From a virus (Duplodnaviria; Caudoviricetes), in IMG/VR virus record IMGVR_UViG_3300020048_000104, positions 1 through 64,000 of that record: a DNA stretch of 64,000 bases; one strand, 5' to 3'. Positions within the stretch are counted from its first letter, which is position 1, and every line of letters begins with the position of its first letter. A program made the translations under genes and the position numbers. The notes beneath the pieces are model-generated. The model was not told the DNA's origin, made no database searches, and saw only the letters and a program-made list of their open reading frames with translations. Below are positions 5,512 to 52,969 of the stretch, piece by piece.

Positions 5512-6614
5512 TGAATATTAATAAGAAACTAAATGCTCAAGCAGTTAGAGAAACAGGAGCTAGTATAGAAGTTTTCAAAAGTAAAAACGATAACGAACTA
5601 TACTATAAAAATACAGATAATCAATTAGTCAATGTAATGACTGATAAGATTAAAGCATTTACTTCTTATTCCGATCTTCCTGTTGAAGGAGTATCTAATA
5701 CTTTTTATATAATAGGTGAAGATATTTATATGTGGAATGGTACAAGTTATTTTTCAATAACTACAGTTCCTGTTACTCCTTCAGAAATAGTAGAATTTGA
5801 TACAGAAAATCCTAATTTAGGAGGAACTGTATTTACTCCTGATGAACAACAAGCATCTAACACTTTATATGTTTCAACAGATGTAGACACTATAGGGCAG
5901 ACTTGGATATGGAACAGCGATACAAATTTATATGAAACGTATGAGGCTGATATTCCTAACAATACTCCTTTTAATTTATATCAAACAAATATAGATGCTG
6001 GAGGAAATAAAACAGCTTTTATACAGCGTAATGGTCCTATATTTATTAATTCAGCTCACTCTAATGGTAGTAGATATGCTGGATATATTTATAGTCGTAC
6101 ATATAGTGGCATAGGTAACGGTCTTTTGGTTAGAAAAGATTTAAGAACTACATCTGGTAATTACTTGTTAGTACAAGGGTGGAATAGTAGTACAAATGAA
6201 ATTCAAGACAAATTAAAAGTAGGTCATGATGGTAAAACTACTATTAATAATGCTTACGCTTTACCTAACGTAGATGGAACAGTAGGGCAAGTTCCTACAA
6301 CTGATGGTACAGGAAATGTTAGTTGGGAAACGATTGATGCAACAGCAACAACAGGCAGTGTTATTTCATTTGCAAGTTCTCAAATATATAATTCAGTAGC
6401 AAGTCCTTCAACATCTAATATTACAGATGATTTAACAGGTGCAAAAATCGGAATTGTTCAGAAGATTTATCACAATCATTCAGTTGCCCCTACATTTCCT
6501 GTAGGTTGGGTAAGAATGGGAAGTGGTGATTATGTTACAAGTGTTTTAAATGTAATATTCTGTGAGTGGGTTTCAGGAACTCGTGTTGAATATTGGATAA
6601 ATCAAGAAGCATAG
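5511..6614 (+). CDS. Tail fibre/spike protein
   Basis: Mosaic fibre-like sequence with YALPNVDGTVGQVPTTDGTGNVSW motif. Shares its N-terminal module with 7815..9161. Confidence 0.6.
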   Translation: MNINKKLNAQAVRETGASIEVFKSKNDNELYYKNTDNQLVNVMTDKIKAFTSYSDLPVEGVSNTFYIIGEDIYMWNGTSYFSITTVPVTPSEIVEFDTENPNLGGTVFTPDEQQASNTLYVSTDVDTIGQTWIWNSDTNLYETYEADIPNNTPFNLYQTNIDAGGNKTAFIQRNGPIFINSAHSNGSRYAGYIYSRTYSGIGNGLLVRKDLRTTSGNYLLVQGWNSSTNEIQDKLKVGHDGKTTINNAYALPNVDGTVGQVPTTDGTGNVSWETIDATATTGSVISFASSQIYNSVASPSTSNITDDLTGAKIGIVQKIYHNHSVAPTFPVGWVRMGSGDYVTSVLNVIFCEWVSGTRVEYWINQEA

Positions 6615-6616
6615 TT

Positions 6617-7483
6617 ATGAGTAAATATTATAGAATGTTACAATATAGTGGTAATGCTTTGCCTATTTCAAACCTTTTCGCTTATTCTTTTAGAAAGGTA
6701 GTATCAACGGCTACGACATCATTCAGGGTAAGGCGTTCAAGCGATAACGCCGAGCAAGATATAGGTTTTGTGGGTGATGATTTAGACACTACAAGTTTAC
6801 TTACATTTGTCGGTGCTGGTAATGGTTTTGTAACAAAAATGTATGAGCAAAATGGTAGTGGTAAAGATTTGACACAAACAGTCGCTACTAGTCAATTTCA
6901 AATAGTAGCAAGTGGTGTTGTTAACACTTTGAATGGTAAAGCTAGTTGTATAACAGGTATATCAGTCTCTAAATTTATGACTACTCTTAATTTATTTAAT
7001 CTTAGCGTAGTAAATGGTGTGTCTATATTTAGTGTGACAAAACCTATCACACATATAGGTGGAGCTTTTAATGTTGATTGGATTTATTCAATAGGCGCTG
7101 GGGGGACTTCTTCTCCTAGTAGATTTTTTGATAATAATATATCGGGCGCTGTTGGAAATCCGACAACTTATAATAGTAACACTCAAGCTGGTGGTTCTTT
7201 AATAAGTACACCATACACAAGTGGAACTAAACTTCAAGGTCATTTCATTAAGTCTGGTGATAATAAATATTACCAAAATGCTGTTATTGTAGGTTCTAAC
7301 AGCAATTCTTTAGTGACACCTAGTAGTAATCAAAGGTTAGTTATAAATGGAATTTCTTGGAGTATAGGCAGTACTTCCTCATCTAATCAATATTTCTCAG
7401 AAATTTTATTTTATAATTCAGATGAAACATCAAATTTAACCGCTATACAAAACAATATTAACTCTTATTATTCAATATACTAA
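6617..7483 (+). CDS. Tail-associated protein with arabinofuranosidase-B-catalytic-like / concanavalin-like beta-sandwich domain
   Basis: AYSFRKV...FRVRRSSDNAEQDIGF...LDTTSLLTFVGAGNGFVTKMYEQNGSG is a pattern common in phage tail proteins. ATG 6617 is preferred over the track start at 6593. Confidence 0.55.
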   Translation: MSKYYRMLQYSGNALPISNLFAYSFRKVVSTATTSFRVRRSSDNAEQDIGFVGDDLDTTSLLTFVGAGNGFVTKMYEQNGSGKDLTQTVATSQFQIVASGVVNTLNGKASCITGISVSKFMTTLNLFNLSVVNGVSIFSVTKPITHIGGAFNVDWIYSIGAGGTSSPSRFFDNNISGAVGNPTTYNSNTQAGGSLISTPYTSGTKLQGHFIKSGDNKYYQNAVIVGSNSNSLVTPSSNQRLVINGISWSIGSTSSSNQYFSEILFYNSDETSNLTAIQNNINSYYSIY

Positions 7484-12638: not shown

Positions 12639-13170
12639 CCCTAGTTGGAAAATAAGAGGTAAAAGTAAGGTAACTCAAGATAACGGTAAATACTTATTTT
12701 ATTCTTATTATATAAAAAATACAGTTGGTAAAAAAATACCACGTAAACAGTTTGATGCTTTTATGAATGATATTATAAAATCATTAACTGATGCTATGAT
12801 TAAAGAAGGATTAGAAATAAAGATTCCTGTATTAGGTTCTTTTAGAGTACGTGAGAAAGAAATGAAATTACTTGATAATGATGGTAATATCAATAAGTAT
12901 TTAAAAGTAGATTGGAAGAGTAGTTGGGAGTATTGGAGAATGACATATCCTGATTTATCAGATGATGATATTATTAAAATAAAAGATAAAAAACTAATTC
13001 GTTTTGATAATGCACATACAAATCATTACTTTTACAAAATAATATGGGATAAAAGAAGATGTTTATTAAGAAATCAATTTGTATATTCTTTTAAACCTAC
13101 TAGATTATTATTAAAACAATTAGCAGATGTTGTAAAAGACGAAAACAAAACAGTATATTATTATGGATGA
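12622..13170 (+). CDS. IHF/HU-like DNA-binding protein of the crAss tail module
   Basis: RKQFDAFMNDIIKSLTDAMIKEGLEIKIPVLGSFRVREK matches the HU/IHF pattern. crAss phages carry such a gene at this position. Confidence 0.7.
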   Translation: MEQKSSPSWKIRGKSKVTQDNGKYLFYSYYIKNTVGKKIPRKQFDAFMNDIIKSLTDAMIKEGLEIKIPVLGSFRVREKEMKLLDNDGNINKYLKVDWKSSWEYWRMTYPDLSDDDIIKIKDKKLIRFDNAHTNHYFYKIIWDKRRCLLRNQFVYSFKPTRLLLKQLADVVKDENKTVYYYG

Positions 13171-13441
13171 AATGAAAAGTATAAGTGGTAATTCAGATGC
13201 TCAAGTAAGTTGGTCTAAAAGAGTAAAGAAAGAAGACGGTTCTGAGATTCGTGTTGATGTTGAAAAAATCAATAATGGTTTCTTAAAAACTACTACTACA
13301 GAAGGTAAAAGTAGTAATGGTGATTGGGAATATAAAACAGAAAAAGAATTTTCAGAAACAAATCCTTTTGAAGAAGATGAAGAGTCTGAAGAAAAAGAAT
13401 TATCTTTAGCTGATAAGTTAGAATCATTTTTCAAAAAATAA
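13163..13441 (+). CDS. Small acidic hypothetical protein
   Basis: 92 aa ORF overlapping the upstream stop and ending 3 nt before the next start. Confidence 0.55.
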   Translation: MDEMKSISGNSDAQVSWSKRVKKEDGSEIRVDVEKINNGFLKTTTTEGKSSNGDWEYKTEKEFSETNPFEEDEESEEKELSLADKLESFFKK

Positions 13442-13444
13442 GCT

Positions 13445-14593
13445 ATGTATTCAGGAAACACAGTATCATACAAAACAATAGTAAACAAACTCTTTAGAGA
13501 TTTTCCTTTTGAAGAAAAGTTTAACGATGAGGAATGTTTAGAATGGTTAGCAGAGTTTATGGCTCATGCTAATTCTGGTGTGGTAATGGAATCCAAAATA
13601 GCTTTCTTAGACATAAATGATGGTAGAGGTGATCTACCTTTTGACTTGCATAAAATTAAACAAGTAGCTAGTGTAACTAATGTTCTTAATGCTGAAGATG
13701 CTCTATGTGGAAAAGGACATTTACACCCTATGCGATGGGCTACTGATAATTTTCATAAACGATACCATACAGATACTAGAGATTATACATCTCAATCATT
13801 ACATACTTATACAGTAGGTCAAAACTTTGTATTTCCTTCTTTTACATGTGGTGTATTAGCAATATCTTATGAAGCAATACCTACAGACGATGAAGGTTAT
13901 CCTACTATTCCTGCTGAACAACAATGGTTAGAAGGAGCTACTCATTATATTGCTGCTAAAATAGCTAAAAAGCTATGGTTAAGAAACGAATTAACTGCTG
14001 ATAAGTATAGAGAAATTGATAAAGATAGAGATTGGTATTTTGCACAAGCTGTAAATCATTCTAAACAATGGAATGGTGTTGATGAAGCAGAGTCATTCAA
14101 AAATCAAATGGTGCGTACAATTCCTTCTATTCAGGATCACGCTTCATTTTTTGCTAATATGCAATTACCAGAACAACGTTATTTTAAAGGTGCTAGTAAT
14201 ACTACAATTTCTTTAAATAACGCAACAGGATTACTTAGTGGTATTCCTAATACTACTACTGTAGGTACAGCTGTAAATGGTACACCTACATCATATCCTA
14301 CTTTAATAACAGGAATAGCTAGTTCTATAACTCAAACTACAGCAAGTTGTGCTAATCAAATTACTTTTTATGGAGGTAGTGCAATTACAGATCATGGTGT
14401 TTGTTACGGTACATCTCCTAATCCTACATTGTTAAACAGTGTTGTGAATCTAGGAAACACAGGTGTAGTAGGTGCTTTTGTTACATCATTAACAGGACTT
14501 ACAGCAGGAACATATTACTATGTACGTTCTTTTGTATCAAATGGATTAGGAACTTTTTACGGAAATGAAATAACATTTACAACTTTACCTTAA
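13445..14593 (+). CDS. Tail ring protein (crAss001 gp43 / P22 gp4-like) fused to C-terminal fibronectin type III domain
   Basis: Ring portion VSYKTIVNKLFRD...GRGDLP...AISYEAIPTDDEGYPTIP...DRDWY. After a T/N-rich linker comes GGSAITDHGVCY...LTGLTAGTYYYVRSFVSNGLGTFYGNEITFTT (FN3). Confidence 0.75.
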   Translation: MYSGNTVSYKTIVNKLFRDFPFEEKFNDEECLEWLAEFMAHANSGVVMESKIAFLDINDGRGDLPFDLHKIKQVASVTNVLNAEDALCGKGHLHPMRWATDNFHKRYHTDTRDYTSQSLHTYTVGQNFVFPSFTCGVLAISYEAIPTDDEGYPTIPAEQQWLEGATHYIAAKIAKKLWLRNELTADKYREIDKDRDWYFAQAVNHSKQWNGVDEAESFKNQMVRTIPSIQDHASFFANMQLPEQRYFKGASNTTISLNNATGLLSGIPNTTTVGTAVNGTPTSYPTLITGIASSITQTTASCANQITFYGGSAITDHGVCYGTSPNPTLLNSVVNLGNTGVVGAFVTSLTGLTAGTYYYVRSFVSNGLGTFYGNEITFTTLP

Positions 14594-17500
14594 TGAAAGT
14601 AGCAGTAAATACATACGGAGGATTGAATCAGGATGCATCTTATGATAGCATACAACCGTCTTTTTATATAGATGCTTTAGATGTAAGAATTACTACATCA
14701 ACAGGAGATTCTCAAGGTTCTATTACCAATAAAAAAGGTGAATTATTTTCTTTTACTATTCCTAATAGTGGTAAGATAATAGGAACTTGTAATATTCGAA
14801 ATACTATTATTATTTTTACATTACATAGTACAGGAATAACAAGTAGGATTTATAAAATCATATACGATGATGTAGATACTTCTATTGTAACAGGTCCTAC
14901 TTTAGTATATGCTAATAATGACTTGAATTTCAGCGATCTTAATCCTATAGAAGCAGTGGGTAGATTTGAGTCAAATGCTGTTCAAAGAATTTACTGGACT
15001 GATTATAATGAACAATTAAGAACATTGAATATTAATGATCCTAATGTATTAACTACTCCTGTATCATTAATAAATATCAATCCTAGTATTAAATATCAAC
15101 AACCTTTACTAACAAGTATTAGTGGAGGTGGTGTATTACCTGTAGGTCTATATCAATGTGCTTATAGACTTATAACTTTTGATGGAAAAGAAACATTAAT
15201 ATCTCCTCCTAGTAATATGATACATGTTGTTTCTGATTCAGAAACTGTTGTTAATTCAGCTAGATATACAGGAGAACCTAAAGGTACTATTACTTCAAAA
15301 GCATTAGGTATAACAGTAGACACTACTGATTATTCAGATTATAATAAAATAGAATTTATAATTTTATTTCATGAAGATTTTAATGGTGTACCTACTGTTA
15401 AGTCTATAGAAACAGTATTGATAAGTGGTCAATCATCAGTATCATTTACTTACACAGGTAATGAAAATTCTACTTATGTTATTTCTATTGAAGACTTTAC
15501 GTTAAAAACATATCCTTTTTCTACATGTAAAACACTTGCTCAAGTAGACAGTTCTTTATTAATAGGAAATCTGAAAGCTAGTAGTTATAGTGTACAAGAT
15601 TCTTTAGGTCCTGGTGAAACATTCAGTGCTTCTACATTGAGGTATAATTCATTAGGTGAATCTATGGTAGGTAAAACTAACTTTAGAAAAGTAGGAACTC
15701 CTGTTTATACAGCTGATGAAGTAAAGTTCAATACTGCTTATAATGAAGATGCACATTGGGATTCTAGGTGGCATACATTAGGACAGTTTAAATATAAATC
15801 TAACGGTACTACATTAGGTGGTGAGTCAGTTCCTTCAGGTTTAAATCCTCCTAATGTTAGTTATGAGTTTATATTAGAACCAATGATTATAGATCAAGGA
15901 GGTGCTAATAATCCAGGTGTGTTAGCTCCTATTCCTTATACTACACATAACTTAAATGATGGATATACCTATACAAATACTACATTTGATTCATACGCTT
16001 CTCCTTTTATTAGTGGTTTATTAAAAGGATATAAGCGAGGTGAAACATATAGATTTGGTATTGTGTTTTACCGTAAAGGAGAAGTATCATTTACTGAGTT
16101 CATAGGAGATATTAAATTTCCTGATATTTCAGAAGAATCAGATGCTGTGAATAGTTCTGGAGAATTATATTTTCCTTTGTCTAAAAACTTATCAGGAACT
16201 TCTACTACTGCTTATGCAATGGGTATTCAATTTACAATTGATTTTACATCATGTCCTAGTTTATTAGCAGATATAGATTCTTATCAAATAGTAAGAGTAG
16301 AAAGAAAAATTGAAGATACTAGACGTATTTCATCAGGAAGTTTAAAAGTCTTCTCAGATGTAAATTTAAACGCTCCTCCTAGTGGTGGTTGGGATTTACG
16401 TATTAATGGTTCATCTAATGTATTACATCTATTTAAAAGAAACAATAGTGGTGATACAAGTAATGGTAGTATTTTATATTTAAAAGATACTGCTCCTGTT
16501 TCAGGAGATCATCATCAAGTAAAAGGATCTTATGTAAGTTATATATCACCAGAATTATCTTACGAATATGATAATATTAAAGAGTTAATATTAAGTGAAT
16601 CTAATTCATATTTATTATTAACAGGTACTTATAGTACACCTACAAGTAATCAATATGTTTCTACAAGTACAACAGGTACTGAAAATTTAGGTACTGTTAT
16701 AGATGATGTTAATAAATGGGATAATTGCGTAAAAGTAAATTCTAACGTAAATGGTTATGAGTATGTAAAATCTCTAAACGATAAAAATTATATTAAATTT
16801 CAAAATACTTTAGCATCAGCTTATGAAACAGATGTAAATACAATTACTCCTTTAATAAATGGTACTTATTATTTAAGAAATTACTATGCTGAATGTATAG
16901 ATTCATCAGATATGAACAATTGTAATGGTAATGGTAGTTTTTCTAAAGGTGCTCAATCTATATTAGGAAGACTTGCTAAAATACAATACGATCCAATTAC
17001 AGGAGTTGATTTATCAACAACAGGTACAATATCATCAACTGATTATTTTATAGTAAGTGCTCCTTTACCTGCATTATCATTAGGTAATACTAAAGCCATA
17101 TTAGATATATTAGTTCCTCGTATTGAAGTGTACGGAGGATATTCTGATTCAGCTTTAGAAAATAATATATTTATTGCATCATCACCTGTTATTAACAAAT
17201 CAAATACTAATCCTAAAGTATTTGGAGGAGATATGTTTATCAATACGTTTATACACCAAGCAGGTTCTACTGTTAATAGTTCTTTGTATTTTCAAAACGC
17301 AGCTCAACCAGCTCAAGAAATAGGTCAAAATATGTCAATGACAAATATATACCCTATTGAAACTACTATCAACTTAGATTTGAATTACGGTGCTGATTTA
17401 AAAAGAGGTGTTAGATATGATGTTCCTGGAGGATCAGGAGGTGTAAAAGCTAAGCGATACAGACAAGAATCAAATAATTACGATACAACGTATGGTAAGA

Positions 17501-42231: not shown

Positions 42232-43914
42232 TTATAAACTAATAGCTTTTATAACATTAGGAAATTCATTTCTGAATAACTCTAATATATTTAATGCTAT
42301 TTCTCTATGTTCTAGTTGTGTATGTTCATCACATCTAATTTGAAAGTAATGAATCCATGATCGTAAACTTCCTTTCATATACAAAGTCGTACCTACTGTT
42401 AATGGTAATACCATTCTAGCACATTCTTTAGCAACTCCATTAGCAAGTAAATTATCATATAATCTTTGTCCTTCTGCTATATGGTTTTTTACCATTTTAC
42501 TAGCACTAACATTATGAATAGTAGGATTAAATACTTCCATGCTAGATTGTCTATTTGTTGCACCAGCTCTTCTTAATTCAACTAATTCGAAATCTTGTAC
42601 TTCAGAATACCTTTGTGAATTATGTACAATTATACCATTAGCTACATAATTATGATTTTCATTATAAATTTCTAAATCGTAAGTTTCTATTTCTCCAACA
42701 TACTCGATTGATTCTATTATCTGCCACTCCACAGTTAAAGTATTACCTTTACTTTTCATTCTCCATTTTTTAGGATCTCCTGCGATATTATGTTTTTCAT
42801 TGTGACATTTTTTACAAAGAACTTGTATATTATTCTTATCATAAGCTAATGAAATATCTTCAAAAACAGGTATGATGTGATCTAGTTCTAATTTTTCATT
42901 AGTTTGACAATTTTTACATTTATAATTAGACTCTATTAATTTTTCAGCTCTTATGGTATTACACCAATCTGCTATTTTCAATCTTTCTGTTCTACAACTA
43001 CCTCCTTTGTATAAATTACTTTCACTACCTTTTTTAGCACTTTTTCTCATTTTTTCAATTGTTTCTATACTATGAGGTTTATTTTTATATCCGAATTTAT
43101 TTTTATTCCATACCTCTGTGTATTGAGATACTTCTTTTTTAGTAAACCCTATATTATGTAATTTTAACCATTTTCTTATAGTATGATAACTAACATTAGC
43201 ACTATCAGCTATTCCTTGTACCCCAGTTTTATTTTTAATAACTATTGCTTTTTGAGCAATAAGCCATTCTTTAGATTGATGTAAAGGAATACCATTAGTG
43301 GCAATTATACCTTTTTTAGACATTGTTATTTTAGTACCATGTGTTTCTAAACCTATTATGTCTTCTAAAGAGTAAAATCCGTTTTTTGTTAAAAATTTAT
43401 GTTCTTTAGTACATACTATTTCTTTTCCTCCAGATGTTATAATTTTAAAACAAGGCTTTATTCCTGTTTTAAACACCTCTTTAATTCTTGACGTAGTAAA
43501 TTTTTCACCATCATAAAATCTAACTAAAGGTAATCCATTATTTTTAGTATGATTATTAGGTTTTGATTGAAGATTATACAAATGGCTTATTTTTCTTTTA
43601 TACGTTGCTCCACTAGGTAATTTTAAAGTTATCATACTATCACCAGCTATACAAAATTCCTGAAATGAAAATGAACGATGTCTTAATATCTGTGCAGCAA
43701 TAGCTCTACTTGTTTTAATTTCAACAGTAATATCTACCATTTCAAAAGGACTCCAATGCTTGTGTTTAATTAAATAATTTAACAGTCTATCAGCTGTTTC
43801 CATATTTAATTGATTCTCAGGATTACTAACTCTAGCTGTATAAACAACTAATTCTTCAGGTGTAGACACTCCTTCTATAAGAGGCTGTGTCATTGAAATT
43901 ATTTTTGTTTCCAT
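42232..43914 (-). CDS. thyX: FAD-dependent thymidylate synthase ThyX with intein (215 aa after splicing)
   Basis: HKHWSPFEM, RAIAAQILRHRSFSFQEF|SQRY signature interrupted by the intein, KECARMVLP, GSLRSWIHY, QLEHR. Confidence 0.93.
   Translation of the reverse strand: METKIISMTQPLIEGVSTPEELVVYTARVSNPENQLNMETADRLLNYLIKHKHWSPFEMVDITVEIKTSRAIAAQILRHRSFSFQEFCIAGDSMITLKLPSGATYKRKISHLYNLQSKPNNHTKNNGLPLVRFYDGEKFTTSRIKEVFKTGIKPCFKIITSGGKEIVCTKEHKFLTKNGFYSLEDIIGLETHGTKITMSKKGIIATNGIPLHQSKEWLIAQKAIVIKNKTGVQGIADSANVSYHTIRKWLKLHNIGFTKKEVSQYTEVWNKNKFGYKNKPHSIETIEKMRKSAKKGSESNLYKGGSCRTERLKIADWCNTIRAEKLIESNYKCKNCQTNEKLELDHIIPVFEDISLAYDKNNIQVLCKKCHNEKHNIAGDPKKWRMKSKGNTLTVEWQIIESIEYVGEIETYDLEIYNENHNYVANGIIVHNSQRYSEVQDFELVELRRAGATNRQSSMEVFNPTIHNVSASKMVKNHIAEGQRLYDNLLANGVAKECARMVLPLTVGTTLYMKGSLRSWIHYFQIRCDEHTQLEHREIALNILELFRNEFPNVIKAISL
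42619..43653 (-). mobile_element. Intein with HNH endonuclease (345 aa) in ThyX
   Basis: Starts F|CIAGDS, block B TKEHKF, ends TYDLEIYNENHNYVANGIIVHN|S. Contains CKNC...ELDHIIP...NIQVLCKKCHNEKH (HNH). Confidence 0.92.
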
Positions 43915-43925
43915 ATATTATTTTA

Positions 43926-45086
43926 TTACATATCTACTGATTCTCTCATTCTTATGAATTTAGGGAATCTTAACTTATTACTATTTGTATATCCAAAGTA
44001 TTGAAATGTAGCTCTTTTACCTTCAAATTCATCTTTATAACGTAACATGTATCTAGCACGATCATGGTCAATACCTTTACCTAATCCTGCTTCTTGCTCA
44101 GTTCCGTCATCTAATCGTATTTTCATTTTACCACATATTCCAGTATTAGTTCCTTCTCCTTCAATGATTTCTAATATATTGGCTTCCAGGTCATAAACTT
44201 CCTTACGTTTAAGTAATACTTTAGATCGTTTGTCTGGTTCATAAGGAGCATCTAATCTAAGAATAGTACCTTCATATCCTAACAATAATGCTTTTTCATG
44301 CAACCTATCAAATTCTTCTTCTGAATAAACAGTTTTAGATTTACAATGACTGATGTTATCTTCATTAAACATAAGATGAAAATCCTTATGAGATAATAAA
44401 ATATCATTTCTTATAATAAATGATTGTTCAGGAATACATTTATTGAAAAAATCATAAATATGATATTCTACATGTAAATAGGATAATTCTATGTCCTTAT
44501 CTGTAGGTTTTTCTTTTTTGATAATTGATAACAAGTCTTCAAAATTATCTTTGAATTTATGACTGTATAATTCACCATCTAAAATAATATCAGGATATAC
44601 ATCAAATATACCTTTCAACTGTGATTCAATATGCATACAATTTTTCCATATCTTACCTGTACGAGTCTTTAATACTATTTTACCATCAATCATCATAGCG
44701 TTACATCTAGCACCATCTAACTTAGGAGAAACCCAAGCAGGATATGTTACTTTTGATTTCCATTCTTGCCATTTCATACCAGAAGGACATAACATAGGTC
44801 TGAACTCTTTTTCAATAGATACTGCTTCTTCTTTTGTTTTGAAATAACCTTCTCTAAGTTTTTTATCAACAGTCTGCTGAAACAATACAACTGCTTGTTC
44901 AGCAGGTGTTGTAGCATTAGATTTACCGATGTTTTTAGCTTCTGTTTTAGTTAGTGTCCAGTCTTTAATCTTTCCTTCTTCTAAACCATCTCTATAACGA
45001 ATACCGTTAAATATATCCGTTACTGCTTCACAATCCCAAACTCTTATTTTTCCTTTGGAATCTGTTTTGTACAATCTTATTATCAT
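43926..45086 (-). CDS. ATP-dependent DNA ligase
   Basis: Motif I SPKLDGARC, ILDGELY, YHIYD, GYEGTILR, LLKRK and LRFPKF. Confidence 0.92.
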   Translation of the reverse strand: MIIRLYKTDSKGKIRVWDCEAVTDIFNGIRYRDGLEEGKIKDWTLTKTEAKNIGKSNATTPAEQAVVLFQQTVDKKLREGYFKTKEEAVSIEKEFRPMLCPSGMKWQEWKSKVTYPAWVSPKLDGARCNAMMIDGKIVLKTRTGKIWKNCMHIESQLKGIFDVYPDIILDGELYSHKFKDNFEDLLSIIKKEKPTDKDIELSYLHVEYHIYDFFNKCIPEQSFIIRNDILLSHKDFHLMFNEDNISHCKSKTVYSEEEFDRLHEKALLLGYEGTILRLDAPYEPDKRSKVLLKRKEVYDLEANILEIIEGEGTNTGICGKMKIRLDDGTEQEAGLGKGIDHDRARYMLRYKDEFEGKRATFQYFGYTNSNKLRFPKFIRMRESVDM

Positions 45087-45619: not shown

Positions 45620-46035
45620 AGTCTTGTGTATTCTATTTTATACAAATCATTTATACTTGAGTCAGCTTCTAGCTCATAAGCTATCTGTGATGCTTCTTTA
45701 TCATCATAACAAGTAAGTATCTTAGAAGTAAGATAATTATCGTTATCGTCTAAGTAAGTGAATTTGTAGTCTACATTTACAAGAATTGTAATATCATCTA
45801 TAAATTCTAAAGCAGCAGGATTATAATCTATTATACCGTCTTCATCGTCATCTTCAGTAATGTAAGATGGTATGTAATCACTATTTTCAAATAATGTTTT
45901 TACAGTGCATGAAAATGAACCTTGCTTTTTCAAATCTTCTAACATGCGTGATCCCCAATATATTAAGTCCTCTTCATCAGATATAAACCAATTAATAAAC
46001 CTACTGGCTAATATTTTCTTTTTTTCTCCATTCAT
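45616..46035 (-). CDS. Hypothetical acidic protein
   Basis: ATG 46035 (MNGEKK) is preferred over track start 46083 because it reduces overlap with the upstream gene. Confidence 0.5.
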   Translation of the reverse strand: MNGEKKKILASRFINWFISDEEDLIYWGSRMLEDLKKQGSFSCTVKTLFENSDYIPSYITEDDDEDGIIDYNPAALEFIDDITILVNVDYKFTYLDDNDNYLTSKILTCYDDKEASQIAYELEADSSINDLYKIEYTRL

Positions 46036-46417
46036 ATTTAATATTGTTATAAATTTCTTTTTCTTCTTCTGATAATGAATCATAAGTAAGATTTGTTAAT
46101 ACTTCGTAATTATGAGATTCACTATCTTCTTTTAAATAATAAGGCTCTTGTTTATTACCTAAACATACACCTTGATGAATATAAGGTTTACAATTATTTA
46201 TTTTAGCTTTTGTTTGAAGTCCTAATGTAATTGCTAACTGTTCTTTTTTATATTCCTTGTACTTTATCTGTTTGCAATAAACGCATTGATAAGTACGTAA
46301 TTTTATAATACCATCTTTTCGAATAGAATTAGCAATTACAAATCTAGTCAAAGGAAAATAATTACCACAGTATCTACATTGCCTCAGATCCCCAGTTGAT
46401 AATGTGTTCTGTTCCAT
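46001..46417 (-). CDS. Hypothetical CxxC-CxxC zinc-finger protein
   Basis: CRYC and CVYC pairs about 28 aa apart. Confidence 0.5.
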   Translation of the reverse strand: MEQNTLSTGDLRQCRYCGNYFPLTRFVIANSIRKDGIIKLRTYQCVYCKQIKYKEYKKEQLAITLGLQTKAKINNCKPYIHQGVCLGNKQEPYYLKEDSESHNYEVLTNLTYDSLSEEEKEIYNNIKYEWRKKENISQ

Positions 46418-47075
46418 ATTTACTTATTAATAAATCATTACATTCTTTAAAAGAAATGCTACACCATGTAGCATGTTGTTTTCCTGCTGTAACAGGATGT
46501 ACATCTTTGATAATTTCATTATTAGGACCTATCATTGGCAACAACTCATTATTTTCATCACCCCATATAATGAATATAGTACCAGGTCTATAATCATTAA
46601 TAGCTTGTATTACTGATAATGTGAATTTATTCCAAGGTTTTTTATGTTCTCCTGTTTTAAACTCAGGAGCTGTCAAAGAAGTGTTTAATAATAATACTCC
46701 TTGTTTAGCCCATGATTGTAATGAAAAATCAAAATCTAAGCATAATGAATTAGATGTCTGTTCTACAGCTTTTCTAATCTCATATAATGCTATATTAGGA
46801 TAATTATTAGCTACTTTAGTACCAAATGCTAAACCGTTAGGATTCATATCCCAAGCAGGATCTAATCCTAATATTACTACTTTCAAATCTTCCCACGGAC
46901 ATAATTTAAAAGCATTGAATACATCCTCACGAGAAGGATGTATTTTTTGCTTTCCATATTGTACATTTAAAAAATCTGTAAGTTTATCCATATAAGGACT
47001 TCTAAGTGTTTCCTGTAGAGCATTTACCCAACCTTCTCCTAGTTTCTCAACCCAGAATTTTTTACTTTGTGCCAT
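46374..47075 (-). CDS. ung: Family-1 uracil-DNA glycosylase with altered specificity motif
   Basis: HPSREDVFNAFKLCP, VVILGLDPAW (canonical GQDPYH), GLAF, WAKQGVLLLNTSLT, FIIWG, DVHP. Probable start MAQ at 47075. Confidence 0.85.
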   Translation of the reverse strand: MAQSKKFWVEKLGEGWVNALQETLRSPYMDKLTDFLNVQYGKQKIHPSREDVFNAFKLCPWEDLKVVILGLDPAWDMNPNGLAFGTKVANNYPNIALYEIRKAVEQTSNSLCLDFDFSLQSWAKQGVLLLNTSLTAPEFKTGEHKKPWNKFTLSVIQAINDYRPGTIFIIWGDENNELLPMIGPNNEIIKDVHPVTAGKQHATWCSISFKECNDLLISKYGTEHIINWGSEAM

Positions 47076-47077
47076 AT

Positions 47078-47272
47078 CTAATGAATTGTTATTGTTACAT
47101 TTTCTAAAATAGAATGATCGCATTCACCATAAGGAGTATTTAATATTCCTTTGTCTACTAAGGATTGATGAAAATCTACTATTTCATCATATCCGTCAAT
47201 ACCGTAAGGATAGTCAAATACATGTATTTCATTCTTTTCGTATTCTGTAATTATTAATTTACATTTTGCCAT
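47078..47272 (-). CDS. Small hypothetical protein
   Basis: 64 aa, coupled by TAATG overlap. Confidence 0.5.
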   Translation of the reverse strand: MAKCKLIITEYEKNEIHVFDYPYGIDGYDEIVDFHQSLVDKGILNTPYGECDHSILENVTITIH

Positions 47273-47874
47273 TATTCAAATTCTTTTGATGGTTTTAAAA
47301 ATTTATGCATGAATACAGATTCTAATTTATCTAACGTTAATGTTTCTTCTGATTCATCCATAATAGTCCATACTTCATTATCCCCTAAATCTGCACCTAT
47401 TTTATCTTCCCAAGCTGTTTTTAAAGATTTTGACTTGTTAAATATCATAGGAATAACAGAAGATTGGCTATCGAAATAATGATTTTTTAGAATCATTTGT
47501 TTACCTTCTGGTGATATTTTAGAATACTCTCCATTAACTACTTTAGCAAAATCATCTATTCTCTCAGCAGGAATTTCAAATACCATCACAAGTACACCGT
47601 GAGCTTCATAAGAATCTACAAATGTAGGATGTGATGATAATTCATTATAAAAATTATCAAAGTGAACATCTCTATAAGAACTAATAATAATTGATACATG
47701 ATTATTGTATTTTTTACATACATCATCGTATATGAATGCATTAACAAATCTGGATTTAATATCAACTCTGCTGAACGTTCTTTCATCATATACAAACTTT
47801 GATTTATTAATACCTAGTAGAGGAAATATGAAAGTAGCTGTTTTTGTAAAGTGTTTCTTTTTCTTAGTCCTCAT
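47272..47874 (-). CDS. Conserved crAss-like hypothetical protein
   Basis: IFPLLG...FVNAFI...VLVMVFEIP...NGEYSKIS pattern next to the PD-(D/E)XK nuclease, as in crAss-like replication modules. Confidence 0.5.
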   Translation of the reverse strand: MRTKKKKHFTKTATFIFPLLGINKSKFVYDERTFSRVDIKSRFVNAFIYDDVCKKYNNHVSIIISSYRDVHFDNFYNELSSHPTFVDSYEAHGVLVMVFEIPAERIDDFAKVVNGEYSKISPEGKQMILKNHYFDSQSSVIPMIFNKSKSLKTAWEDKIGADLGDNEVWTIMDESEETLTLDKLESVFMHKFLKPSKEFE

Positions 47875-48890
47875 ACCTCTATAAACATTGTTTTGTTAGT
47901 ATAATACTCCATAGGATAATCCCATTCGTTACTTTGTTTATGAAATGCATATCTTTCAATAGCTTGTCTTACACCTTCTAGTTGTTTACCATTAGCTACA
48001 CCACCATTAGTACCTACTTGTAATGATTCATGTGTCATTGTAAATATCATAGGTTTGTTAATACATTCTTTTTCAACAACAAAAAACATAAACGGTTCAA
48101 TAGCATATCCTTTTTCTACAAGTTCTTTTACAGCAGGATATTCAGTTACTGCTTTTGAATAAAATGCACCTTGAAAATCATATCTGTATTTCCAGAAATT
48201 ACCAGGAAAATCAGTAATCATTCCTGACATTGTTTTAATATCAATAGGGTATACTTTCTTTTCGTTATGGTCGATAGTAATCATATCACCCTCACCTTTG
48301 AAATCAATACCTTTAAATGTAAACTCAAATATAGGTTTCTTGATAATCTCTACATTCTTAGTTTTAGTTAAGAAAGGAGAAATGTATTTATCACTTTTTA
48401 ATGCAGCACAAGCAATTATAGCTTTCTGATAATCCTCTTGAGAAATTACTGTTTTATTAGAAGACTTTTGTAAAACAAGGAAATAATCACTTCCTGCTTC
48501 TATTACCTTACTATATAATGTATCAGGTTTCCAAGACTGACCATATCCTATTCTACCAGCAGCTTCTAAAATATGACTTGCGTGTTGTACTAATTCTCCT
48601 TCAGAAGAATATTCATTAAATACTATATTGACAATTTCAACAATAGCATCAGAAGGAAGTTTCATACTTTTCATTATGTAATACACATCTTCAAATTCAG
48701 TATCTTCTGTTAACATGTGATCTACAGCACTACCGAATACAAAATGATCTGGTGTTTTTTCAATAATACCATTAGCTTCATTTTCTAATTTCTGAATGAA
48801 TCTTTCTTGTGTTTGTAAAAACGTCTGAGGATGTTTCAATATTTGTTTTAACAAAGACTGATTCATTTTATCTAAATTTCTATATCCCAT
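47871..48890 (-). CDS. PD-(D/E)XK exonuclease (RecE/ExoVIII-like)
   Basis: FGSAVDHML, FKGEGDMI...IDIKT, YRYDFQGAFY. Confidence 0.8.
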   Translation of the reverse strand: MGYRNLDKMNQSLLKQILKHPQTFLQTQERFIQKLENEANGIIEKTPDHFVFGSAVDHMLTEDTEFEDVYYIMKSMKLPSDAIVEIVNIVFNEYSSEGELVQHASHILEAAGRIGYGQSWKPDTLYSKVIEAGSDYFLVLQKSSNKTVISQEDYQKAIIACAALKSDKYISPFLTKTKNVEIIKKPIFEFTFKGIDFKGEGDMITIDHNEKKVYPIDIKTMSGMITDFPGNFWKYRYDFQGAFYSKAVTEYPAVKELVEKGYAIEPFMFFVVEKECINKPMIFTMTHESLQVGTNGGVANGKQLEGVRQAIERYAFHKQSNEWDYPMEYYTNKTMFIEV

Positions 48891-50205: not shown

Positions 50206-51411
50206 TTAAATTTCTACAAAATTACCTTGTCTATTTTCAAGTCGTATAGTATATTTACCTTCTGATATACATGCTTTATATAATAACATATCTTTTATAT
50301 ATGCTTTAGTTTTAGTACCTTCATCAAAAATATGACTTACTATACGATTTCCTGATTCATCAAATAACATTCCTTTTAGCTCATCTTTAGAAATAGTTTT
50401 GAACGTTACGTTAAGATTAGTCTTTTTAACAGTATTGCTCTTATTCATAGATGAAACCATTACCAGTTTTTTACGAGGTCTTGATACAGCTACATACAAA
50501 GATTGATTCTTACCTTGTATTGGAGAACCATTAGACTGTCCTAAAATGTTATCTTCAAATACATAAACACATTGATAGGTAGAACCTTGTGATTTGTGAG
50601 AACTTATAGCATACCCATATTGTAAATTAGCAAATTGCTTCTTTAAATCGAAATATAGCTTTTTGCAATTGTTCCATAGGTATTTTAAATTCTCATTACA
50701 TAATTCTGTACCAGCATCTGTTAAAACAGGAACACTAATAATATCATCAGTATCATTGTTTCTTAATAACAATTCGTATATTTCATATTCATCCGTATGT
50801 GAATGACGAGTATGAGTATATCTGTCGTAATGGTCTAATTCGACATACTTCATACGAGGTTCTGATACAGAAAGAACAACAAAATCTTCAGAATTATGAA
50901 ACAAGCATTTAGAAGTGTACATAGCTTTACCAGCTCTTGTAGTTCCTATTTTCTCAGAAACATAAAACGAATCATAAGCTGTTAGCATTTCATTTGGATA
51001 ATACTTATTAGGATTATTTCCCCACAGTTTAATACGAATTTTAGTATTTAAGTTTTTAACTGATTGAGGATGATTGTGATTCTCATTATTATAAGTAATC
51101 ATCTTACAGTAATCTGTATTTCCTTCTGAAACATGAAAATCTTCAACAAACATATCTAATACCGTATTTTCATCACTTTCAAATAATACAGAAGAACCAC
51201 TTACATCATCATACTTAGTTACTCTATCTTCTGGTTTTAAAGCACGTAAAACAGGATTATCAGATGTCTGATTTTCATTAATGATTTCTCCTATTCTTAT
51301 GATTGGAGAAGTAGCTGCCTGACGCATTTTTTCTGTAAGTAAATACTTATTTTTAATTTGAAATACAGATGATATTTTATCAGAACCGACAGGTGGCAGT
51401 TGTGCAGAATC
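50206..51411 (-). CDS. SF1B (Dda/RecD-like) helicase, exon 2
   Basis: Starts DSAQLPPV (second half of motif III); contains LTEKMRQ, YGYAISSHKSQGSTY and LYVAVSRPR. The track ATG at 51414 includes the intron terminal G. Confidence 0.9.
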   Translation of the reverse strand, partial: DSAQLPPVGSDKISSVFQIKNKYLLTEKMRQAATSPIIRIGEIINENQTSDNPVLRALKPEDRVTKYDDVSGSSVLFESDENTVLDMFVEDFHVSEGNTDYCKMITYNNENHNHPQSVKNLNTKIRIKLWGNNPNKYYPNEMLTAYDSFYVSEKIGTTRAGKAMYTSKCLFHNSEDFVVLSVSEPRMKYVELDHYDRYTHTRHSHTDEYEIYELLLRNNDTDDIISVPVLTDAGTELCNENLKYLWNNCKKLYFDLKKQFANLQYGYAISSHKSQGSTYQCVYVFEDNILGQSNGSPIQGKNQSLYVAVSRPRKKLVMVSSMNKSNTVKKTNLNVTFKTISKDELKGMLFDESGNRIVSHIFDEGTKTKAYIKDMLLYKACISEGKYTIRLENRQGNFVEI

Positions 51412-51487
51412 CATGCACTGATTGTTATTTTTTCTAAGTAATGTATCAAATTACATAACAATCCTTATACTTTCATATAAGATTAGA

Positions 51488-52270
51488 CTATATCTTGTAT
51501 TGTGTAAATATTATATTTTTATGTGATTTTTTTGAACCATTAACTACTTGTGATACGTTTTTAGGAGTAAATCCATCTTTTTCAGTATCTTTTATCGAGT
51601 TATATGATTTTATAAATATATATTCTTTAGTATATGAATATATTTTCTTTTTACGTGTAACAGAAGTATAATTAAATACAATATCAGATCTATATTCTTT
51701 TTCTCTTATGAATATATGTTCTTTATGCGATTTTCTTTTTTTATTACATACTGCTACAACACTTGATGGTGAATAACCGTCTTGTCTAGTTTGTTCCGAT
51801 GAAGCATATTTTTTTATAAATACTCCATCTAAATCAAAACATAAAACAGGTACAGATAATGGATTTTTTTCATTTTTATTATTATAATTCCCATTATTTT
51901 TTCCATATAATCTCACATTATAAAAATAATTTAATTCTCCACATAAACCAGCTTCTCCACCTAATGAAATATTAGTTAAATTTTCTAAACCTATTTCAGA
52001 AATCAACTTCTTTTCTATTTCACAAGCTTCTAAAGAAGTTAAATTATATTTATATAATTCTATTTTAATACCATGTTTTAAAGCAGTATTGACCCAGTGT
52101 TTAGTCCTATTATGATATGATGTACATCTATATCTTTTTCCCTTACCTACATAAAAAATTTCATCAGTTGTTAATTTTTTATGTACATATACATAAAAAT
52201 TAGTAACTGTTTTATTCTTTACTTGTTTAGTAATTAACTCTGGATTTACTTTTAAAACTTCATATTTCAT
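51488..52270 (-). CDS. Intron-encoded GIY-YIG homing endonuclease with two NUMOD1-like repeats
   Basis: FYVYVH...IFYVGKG..R...E...N..GG. Lies in loop L8 with its stop codon inside the S element. Likely start MKYEV at 52270. Confidence 0.82.
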   Translation of the reverse strand: MKYEVLKVNPELITKQVKNKTVTNFYVYVHKKLTTDEIFYVGKGKRYRCTSYHNRTKHWVNTALKHGIKIELYKYNLTSLEACEIEKKLISEIGLENLTNISLGGEAGLCGELNYFYNVRLYGKNNGNYNNKNEKNPLSVPVLCFDLDGVFIKKYASSEQTRQDGYSPSSVVAVCNKKRKSHKEHIFIREKEYRSDIVFNYTSVTRKKKIYSYTKEYIFIKSYNSIKDTEKDGFTPKNVSQVVNGSKKSHKNIIFTQYKI

Positions 52271-52273
52271 ATT

Positions 52274-52281
52274 CAAATATA
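52274..52281 (-). promoter_or_regulatory. Intron-internal TATATTTG promoter element for the endonuclease
   Basis: TAnnTTTG ends 3 nt before ATG 52270. Confidence 0.5.
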
Positions 52282-52519
52282 ACAATATTATACACACAAT
52301 ACCCTCCCTTTTCGAATAATAAATGATAAATTTATTATTCTACTCCTTACGGATAGTCGTTGAACGTTCCTCATTTTAAAAAGGCTTCGCTGCTGATTGC
52401 CTATTAGACATCTTAATAATTTTCAAACATTCACGCTTACTTTTTGAAGTTACGTTGTAGTTTATTAAGCTTTAAGGGTTTCCAGCAATTAAAGAGGTTT
52501 ATACTCGGCAATTCACTCT

Positions 52520-52969
52520 ACCGAGAAATATAATCTTAGCGTTCTTCTTTTTCAGTTTTTTCATTTCTTTTATGATCTCATCTGAAATCATTGATGCTTC
52601 ATCTACAACTACTAAATCCATTGATTTAATAGGAATTTTATCCTCATCTCTACGATTGTATTCATCTATTTTAAATTCTCCTGTTTCCTCATTTAATTTG
52701 ATACTTAATGCAGATGCTACAGTCATTACTTTATCATATCCTATAGATAAACCTAATACTTTTTTAGCTTTGTGAGAAATAGCAATACCTCCTATTTTAC
52801 CAGGATAGTTAGATATAGCCTTCTTTAATATTGTTGTTTTTCCTGTTCCACCAGGTCCACATAAAATGAATGCTTTTTCATCAGATTTTAAAAAAGTGAA
52901 TAATAAATCCAACGCTTCTGTCTGACCTTGATTAGCATACACCCCAGGGAATAATTCATATTTATTCAT
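52520..52969 (-). CDS. SF1B (Dda/RecD-like) helicase, exon 1
   Basis: Walker A GPGGTGKTT, Walker B VVVDEASM, ends IIFLG at the splice site. Spliced product is 551 aa. Confidence 0.9.

Follow-up and report, generated by a model that had tools for sequence, protein, structure and literature searches.

The window (the whole stretch of DNA analyzed here, 64,000 nucleotides) is part of a 73,083-base viral record with an estimated completeness of 55% and a GC content of ~30% (~70% A+T). The gene layout is crAss-like, with giant open reading frames (ORFs) on the plus strand and a replication module of ~31 kb on the minus strand. This module encodes ThyX, an ATP-dependent ligase, a UDG-like protein, a PD-(D/E)XK nuclease, a Dda-like helicase, a DnaG-type primase, Sak4, and DnaB. 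The UDG-like gene encodes the window's UNG-fold protein (P0001; 233 aa), and the coordinates of this gene, its active-site motifs, and its neighbors are listed in Table 1. The enclosing minus-strand ORF spans positions 46374 to 47123 (249 codons), and a start at 47123 would add 16 residues that are seen in no homologue. In the alignment, all homologues begin at the internal Met at 47075, and P0001 is numbered from this shared residue.

Table 1. Coordinates of the P0001 gene, its active-site motifs, and neighboring genes in the window
Feature	Position	Strand	Remarks and evidence
P0001 CDS	46374..47075	-	Including stop codon; translation, PDB phmmer, Pfam, AF2
Motif A, water-activating loop	46851..46868	-	GLDPAW where UNGs have GQDPYH
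GLAF, uracil-stacking Phe84 (= hUNG F158)	46824..46835	-	Alignment; F or Y across the clade
PPS-loop remnant, YPNI then AL	46791..46802	-	Phosphate-contacting Ser replaced by Ala95; S. aureus UNG alignment
LLLN, Asn131 (= hUNG N204), reads uracil O4/N3	46683..46694	-	Invariant in alignments A1 and A2
WGD, Gly-Ser loop	46557..46565	-	Asp173 where canonical UNGs have S/K/N; alignment
Motif B, HPVTAG versus HPSPLS	46482..46499	-	His193 and Pro194 kept; intercalating Leu replaced by Ala197; both serines gone
ThyX, flavin-dependent thymidylate synthase	42232..43914	-	Pfam Thy1 1.9e-44, PHROG
ATP-dependent DNA ligase	43926..45086	-	Downstream of P0001 in the module
64-aa ORF	47078..47272	-	Between the 200-aa gene and the P0001 gene
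Conserved 200-aa protein	47272..47874	-	Upstream neighbor, candidate partner of P0001
PD-(D/E)XK exonuclease (DUF3799)	47871..48890	-	Part of the conserved gene string

Genomic setting of the P0001 gene

No near-identical DNA to this stretch was found in the phage collection searched; at the protein level, the best matches in that collection were Crassvirales "UDGs" (Cellulophaga phage phi14:2 and gut crAss-like phages). Yutin et al. counted the UDG of crAss-like phages under nucleotide metabolism (PMC7886860), and the P0001 gene is the positional "UDG" of the crAss-like replication module. The gene string consisting of the DUF3799 nuclease, the 200-aa protein, an ORF of ~65 aa that is not always present, and the UDG-like gene recurs around two homologues, P0006 and P0018, and the UDG-like genes are therefore positional orthologs. 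P0006 reads LDPAW in motif A, while P0018 reads SEPCA and lacks both the Asp and the His. In the phage carrying P0006 (L005), a 67-aa gene occupies the place of the 64-aa ORF, which is absent from L002. In this phage clade, the gene for the 200-aa protein is always the immediate upstream neighbor of the UDG-like gene; its orthologs are so placed next to P0006 (57% identity) and P0018 (35% identity), and ~12 homologue clusters of this protein were found. It had no Pfam or PHROG match. Its AF2 model reached a pLDDT of 83, Foldseek returned no fold match at an E value of <0.001, and a wide VIA-align search of the PDB gave a best Z score of 3.3.

Several further features of the module were observed. 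A 138-aa ORF (46001 to 46417, minus strand) overlaps the 3' end of the P0001 gene by 44 bases (46374 to 46417). It contains two CxxC pairs, may be a zinc ribbon, and has no family match; a 128-aa gene is found in the same place in L005. The Dda-like SF1 helicase is encoded in two ORFs (50206 to 52969, minus strand), an N-terminal part of 156 aa (52499 to 52969) and a C-terminal part of 402 aa (50206 to 51414), which abut at position 609 of phrog_325 and are separated by a free-standing HNH ORF (51488 to 52297). In L005, the helicase ortholog is encoded by one gene of 559 aa, and the split in the window resembles a homing-endonuclease or intron insertion. The replication module of L005 ends with a GroES/GroEL pair (Cpn10 and Cpn60; 13032 to 14903) directly after the DNA ligase.

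The presence of ThyX indicates that the phage makes dTMP. The ThyX gene is split by an HNH-bearing intein, with Thy1, Intein_splicing, and HNH Pfam matches in one 560-aa ORF. Searches for base-modification genes gave no Pfam or PHROG match in the replication module or in the last 9 kb of the record, regions in which many ORFs are matchless; the last 9 kb contains a GIY-YIG endonuclease, a DUF932 protein, and several ORFs without a family match. Given ThyX and the lack of recognized base-modification genes, the phage most likely has ordinary T in its own DNA. The roles suggested by the initial annotation, namely, degrading host DNA, excluding modified-DNA phages, and processing the phage's own DNA, thus found no support in this gene content. 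A second canonical UDG, a dUTPase, and a family A (PolA) or family B (PolB) DNA polymerase were not found in the 73-kb record, but these absences mean little because the record is only ~55% complete.

Fold and active-site motifs of P0001

P0001 is a divergent family-1 UNG-fold protein, with homology far beyond chance. A phmmer search against PDB sequences yielded 43 matches, all of them family-1 UNGs, with S. aureus UNG as the best (3WDF; E value, 2.5e-29). The AF2 model, built with an 80-sequence alignment as input, had a mean pLDDT of 92.9, and Foldseek aligned it to ~50 solved family-1 UNGs with TM scores of 0.80 to 0.86. Together, phmmer, AF2, and Foldseek found both the family-1 fold and homology over the full length of P0001, where identity to canonical family-1 UNGs is 29 to 33%. 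The Pfam UDG family (PF03167) matched P0001 at 27.8 bits, barely above the cutoff of 24.3, and the best PHROG was phrog_12143 (E value, 6e-40), which is annotated as "unknown function" and is not a UDG-annotated PHROG.

The Tyr of the GQDPY motif is regarded as a family-1 UNG signature, and the strict uracil specificity of these enzymes is ascribed to it. In P0001, the motif A codons GGA TTA GAT CCT GCT TGG encode G70-L71-D72-P73-A74-W75. HMMER alignments to the S. aureus, Coxiella, and Bacillus UNGs placed GLDPAW on GQDPYH and HPVTAG on HPSPLS, with the further pairs NGLAFG on HGLAFS, GVLLLN on GVLLLN, and WGD on WGK. The translation and these alignments confirm what had initially been read from motif A: the Tyr that gates access to C5 is replaced by Ala74 (GCT), accompanied by Leu71 for Gln and Trp75 for His. 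The four residues described as retained were likewise located. Asp72 aligns with the catalytic Asp of UNGs, Phe84 with the stacking Phe of GLAF, and Asn131 with the uracil-reading Asn of LLLN, while His193, followed by Pro194, aligns with the motif B His that stabilizes the leaving group.

Canonical UNGs compress and invade duplex DNA by means of the PPS loop, the Gly-Ser loop, and the Leu and Ser residues of HPSPLS. This "pinch-push-pull" apparatus is not preserved in P0001, in which the Leu wedge, the motif B serines, and the serines of the PPS and Gly-Ser loops have all been replaced. Compared with canonical UNGs, P0001 has HPVTAG without the Leu wedge or serines, Ala95 at the equivalent of Ser169 in the PPS loop, and Gly-Asp in place of Gly-Ser, a position that is acidic in 8 of the 9 members of the subclade described below. 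Loss of the Leu alone is frequent in phage homologues that keep the Asp, Tyr, and His (HPAxxA-type loops), and it is not in itself a sign of inactivity. Net charge and pI were considered as a proxy for lost DNA binding but were uninformative.

The initial annotation had raised the possibility that the Gln-to-Leu and His-to-Trp changes in motif A inactivate the enzyme. Many phage homologues that keep the Asp, Tyr, and His have L, K, or M at the Gln site and P, S, F, Y, or T at the His site. Both changes fall within the range of these homologues and need not inactivate. The possibility of a non-catalytic protein is raised by three features that had escaped the initial annotation: the loss of the wedge and serines, the loss of the Asp and His in sister lineages, and the recurrence of this "UDG" in a syntenic slot of the replication module. 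The residue at position 75, a Trp or Leu beside the small residue, may partially refill the cavity left by the Tyr.

Lineage distribution of the active-site residues

Three homologue searches combined with column extraction defined a subclade of nine 90%-identity clusters (P0001 to P0008 and P0275), the members of which are 48 to 98% identical to P0001. In the alignment, the Tyr site was occupied by a small residue in all nine clusters (Ala in five, Ser in three, and Asn in one), with no bulky residue among them, and was followed by Trp (six clusters) or Leu (three clusters) and nothing else. The Asp, Asn, and His were retained in 9/9 clusters. P0002, which is 98% identical to P0001, likewise reads LDPAW. 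P0006, an ortholog with 54% identity, was found on 12 contigs, and the three loci read, from three different samples, all encode GLDPAW with the same GCT codon. Two or three nucleotide changes separate GCT from the Tyr codons TAT and TAC. A sequencing error at Ala74, which had been named as a possible refutation, was ruled out, given the GCT codon in orthologs from other samples and the small residue in all nine clusters. A search of IMG/VR for further subclade members returned the wider clade only, at ≤46% identity.

The 244 relatives sampled are biased towards phages. In this sample, the Asp was lost in ~105 sequences, 58 of which have Glu in its place, while the Tyr was retained in 181. Retention of the Asp and His without the Tyr was confined, in this phage-biased sample, to the subclade and P0033, which has a Tyr-to-His change. 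A tree of 65 sequences (IQ-TREE, quick, LG+C20), rooted on bacterial-type UNGs, recovered a 45-member phage clade (SH-aLRT, 99) with a canonical basal member (QDPYY). One branch within it (12 members; support, 88) comprises the nine proteins with an Asp, a small residue, and a His together with P0026, P0127, and P0131, which are nested beside the subclade and have lost the Asp and/or His. In the sister branch (32 members; support, 93), the Asp and/or His was lost in 32/32 proteins, which still keep their length, the fold core, Asn131, a Phe or Tyr at position 84, and the clade-specific N- and C-terminal motifs.

The rates of change at these sites also differed between the branches. Fitch counts of changes in the 32-member clade were 8 for the Asp site, 16 for the His site, and 17 for the Tyr site over 15.1 substitutions per site, compared with zero changes at Asp72, Asn131, and His193 in the subclade over ~2.6 substitutions per site. 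At the sister-clade rates, the probability of observing no change in the subclade is ~0.015 (a crude Poisson estimate from nine clusters). However, 42 to 47% of all positions do not vary within the subclade, and the conservation of the Asp and His is therefore only suggestive.

The degenerate proteins include gp053 of the cultured Cellulophaga phage phi14:2 (KC821624.1; positions 5974 to 6684 of locus L008), which reads GKEPY and AEDP and thus lacks the Asp and His. It is annotated as a uracil-DNA glycosylase and is the sole UDG-family gene in the complete phi14:2 genome. The gp053 gene comes after genes annotated as a gamma-glutamyl cyclotransferase, an ATP-grasp protein, and a GlmS-like amidotransferase. 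The crAss001-like phage PhiCrAssBcn16 retains the Asp, Tyr, and His (GQDLYP and KHPAYY). The degenerate crAss-like "UDGs" (phi14:2 gp053 and P0009 to P0030) occupy the same replication-module slot as P0001, are 40 to 47% identical to it, and share its clade-specific N- and C-terminal motifs. In these proteins, the Asp is gone (mostly Glu but also K, V, G, A, or F), often together with the His, whereas in P0001 both are present and the difference lies at the Tyr gate. Sequence comparison thus portrays an active-site loop that is eroding in this phage clade, and it places P0001 as the Asp- and His-retaining, Tyr-less sister of the catalytically degenerate clade. As sister orthologs lack the Asp and His, a function common to the whole orthologous group cannot rest on catalysis.

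Candidate functions of P0001

The literature search found no published account of Tyr-gate or catalytic-site loss in the UDGs of crAss-like phages. Reports of a replaced gate residue have so far been limited to engineered family-1 mutants and to a UDG family different from family 1. The former include human UNG (hUNG) Y147A and DrUNG Y85A, used as thymine base editors, in which Tyr is changed to Ala at the same structural position as in P0001. The hUNG Y147A mutant, for which PMC11289083 and PMC2853124 both cite Kavli et al. 1996, shows weak, Ugi-sensitive excision of thymine and keeps its excision of uracil (PMC2853124, PMC11289083). The statement in the initial annotation that this engineered enzyme excises thymine thus holds, though the activity is weak. 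In cells, hUNG Y147A edits T poorly and DrUNG Y85A does so better (PMC11289083). Both are single-site laboratory mutants with intact DNA-binding loops, whereas P0001 is a natural protein with several loop changes.

The different UDG family is represented by BdiUng (Blr0248) of Bradyrhizobium diazoefficiens, which has the motif GQDPA, lacks the Leu loop, and prefers single-stranded DNA (ssDNA) (PMC5449639). The enzyme removes U, 5-hmU, and xanthine and leaves the T of G:T in place; the A59Y mutant is narrower in specificity (PMC5449639). By its published description, BdiUng resembles P0001 in having a natural Ala at the Tyr site, a retained Asp, and no classical Leu loop; the combination of an Asp-Pro-Ala motif A with the absence of that loop is present in P0001 as GLDPAW and HPVTAG. 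BdiUng is the best functional analog of P0001. However, BdiUng is a cellular, dimeric protein with a family-4-like fold and an extended protrusion but without the stacking Phe (PMC5449639), whereas P0001 is a family-1 phage protein that has Phe84. No Bradyrhizobium or BdiUng chain was among the 43 PDB sequence matches of P0001, and its top fold matches were family-1 UNGs.

We tentatively favor the interpretation that P0001 is a weak, wedge-less glycosylase with a pocket that, by analogy with BdiUng and hUNG Y147A, would admit uracil and 5-substituted uracils. Asp72, Phe84, Asn131, and His193 would then represent the minimal catalytic and recognition set that has been kept. Judging from hUNG Y147A and BdiUng, the pocket could accommodate 5-hmU, 5-fU, and 5-FU in addition to uracil, and thymine weakly at most. 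Such an enzyme is expected to be slow on duplex DNA and to perform better on the ssDNA or fork DNA of replicating phage, where it would act beside the nuclease and ligase of the module. From its place in the tree, P0001 would be a transitional form in a phage lineage that is in the course of losing canonical uracil excision. Two observations from the sequence comparisons argue against a glycosylase. The same syntenic gene lacks the Asp and/or His in the 32 sisters, in P0026, P0127, and P0131, and in phi14:2, and the DNA-gripping elements of P0001 itself appear degraded (Ala95, Asp173, and HPVTAG).

These same observations make it quite possible that P0001 is instead a UNG-derived DNA-binding or replisome accessory factor, which might serve as a "reader" of bases or AP sites or as a bridging or processivity subunit. 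The poxvirus protein D4/E4, a processivity component of the replisome, offers a model for the latter, as it is a viral family-1-type UDG encoded, like P0001, among replication genes. Its motif A, GIDPYP, likewise lacks the Gln and His of GQDPYH, and the essential role of vaccinia D4 in replication is independent of its glycosylase activity. D4 is catalytically active and keeps the Tyr, whereas P0001 has Ala, and no counterpart of the D4 partner A20 was detectable here. For P0001, synteny points to the conserved 200-aa protein as a candidate partner. UDG modules are documented inside viral replisomes, with poxvirus E4 in contact with both polymerase and template and an inactive UDG domain as part of N4-like PolA (PMC13697223). 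In a non-catalytic P0001, the Asp and His would be ancestral leftovers or would serve binding instead of hydrolysis. This fits the 32 of 32 sister positional orthologs that have lost the Asp and/or His yet preserve length, fold core, and motifs, the complete phi14:2 genome with its "dead" copy only, and the absence from P0001 of the Leu wedge and pinch serines, with an acidic Gly-Ser loop. It fits less well with the invariance of Asp72, Asn131, and His193 in 9/9 clusters, since relaxed relatives lose these residues fast, and the 73-kb record yielded no DNA polymerase. A link to aGPT-Pplase was also considered and dropped, as that family is described as having a helix-hairpin-helix glycosylase-like fold and not a UDG fold (PMC8989533).

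An ordinary uracil-specific repair glycosylase, in which other residues such as Trp75 shut the pocket to C5 substituents, is unlikely. The whole catalytic set is present, a large hydrophobic W or L follows the small residue in all subclade members, and a nucleotide-metabolism and replication module with ThyX and a ligase is in keeping with uracil avoidance. Moreover, E. coli Y66W is reduced ~7-fold but still uracil specific, and both BdiUng and its A59Y mutant excise U (PMC2853124, PMC5449639). However, proteins that keep the Asp and His in the phage-biased sample also keep the Tyr, except for the subclade and P0033, and tested enzymes with a small residue at the Tyr site were broader in specificity (PMC5449639, PMC2853124). 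The missing wedge and pinch serines likewise speak against an efficient canonical enzyme.

The subclade could also be a natural family-1 UNG with an open C5 gate that is now a thymine or 5-substituted-uracil DNA glycosylase, which we consider distinctly improbable. Were it true, the targets of these proteins could be host DNA or rival phages whose thymine is modified, and the subclade would be the natural counterpart of the Y147A and Y85A enzymes in thymine base editors. The structural and literature premises of the initial proposal that the phage enzyme targets thymine or 5-substituted uracils did stand, but a genome that is ~70% AT and encodes ThyX makes a dedicated thymine glycosylase unlikely. 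The most far-reaching version, a dedicated thymine or modified-thymine glycosylase deployed as a weapon against host DNA or against phages with 5-hmU or hypermodified T, is very improbable indeed. In its favor, normal genomic DNA is broken down by hUNG Y147A in vitro, and in E. coli the enzyme acts as a mutator that raises A-to-G mutations (PMC2853124). However, no base-modification genes that could shield its own DNA were recognized in this A+T-rich phage. Y147A acts only weakly on thymine (PMC2853124, PMC11289083), and BdiUng is inactive on G:T (PMC5449639). P0001 is also encoded in the replication module and not among early host-takeover genes, and orthologs without catalysis fill the same slot.

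A natural lineage that combines the catalytic residues with a small gate residue is a ready-made test of the effect of the gate on specificity. P0001 could be a natural scaffold for the excision of thymine or 5-substituted uracils, which is relevant to glycosylase-based base editors. For annotation, the comparison means that the catalytic Asp and/or His is missing from many crAss-like phage "uracil-DNA glycosylases", which for this reason probably have a function different from uracil repair, perhaps one in the replisome like that of poxvirus D4/E4; P0001 stands between the canonical and "dead" states. Some of the matches to the clade profile (P0128, P0142, P0146, P0149, P0164, and P0200 to P0256) are much longer proteins of 327 to 803 aa, in which the UNG-like domain is C-terminal or in tandem.
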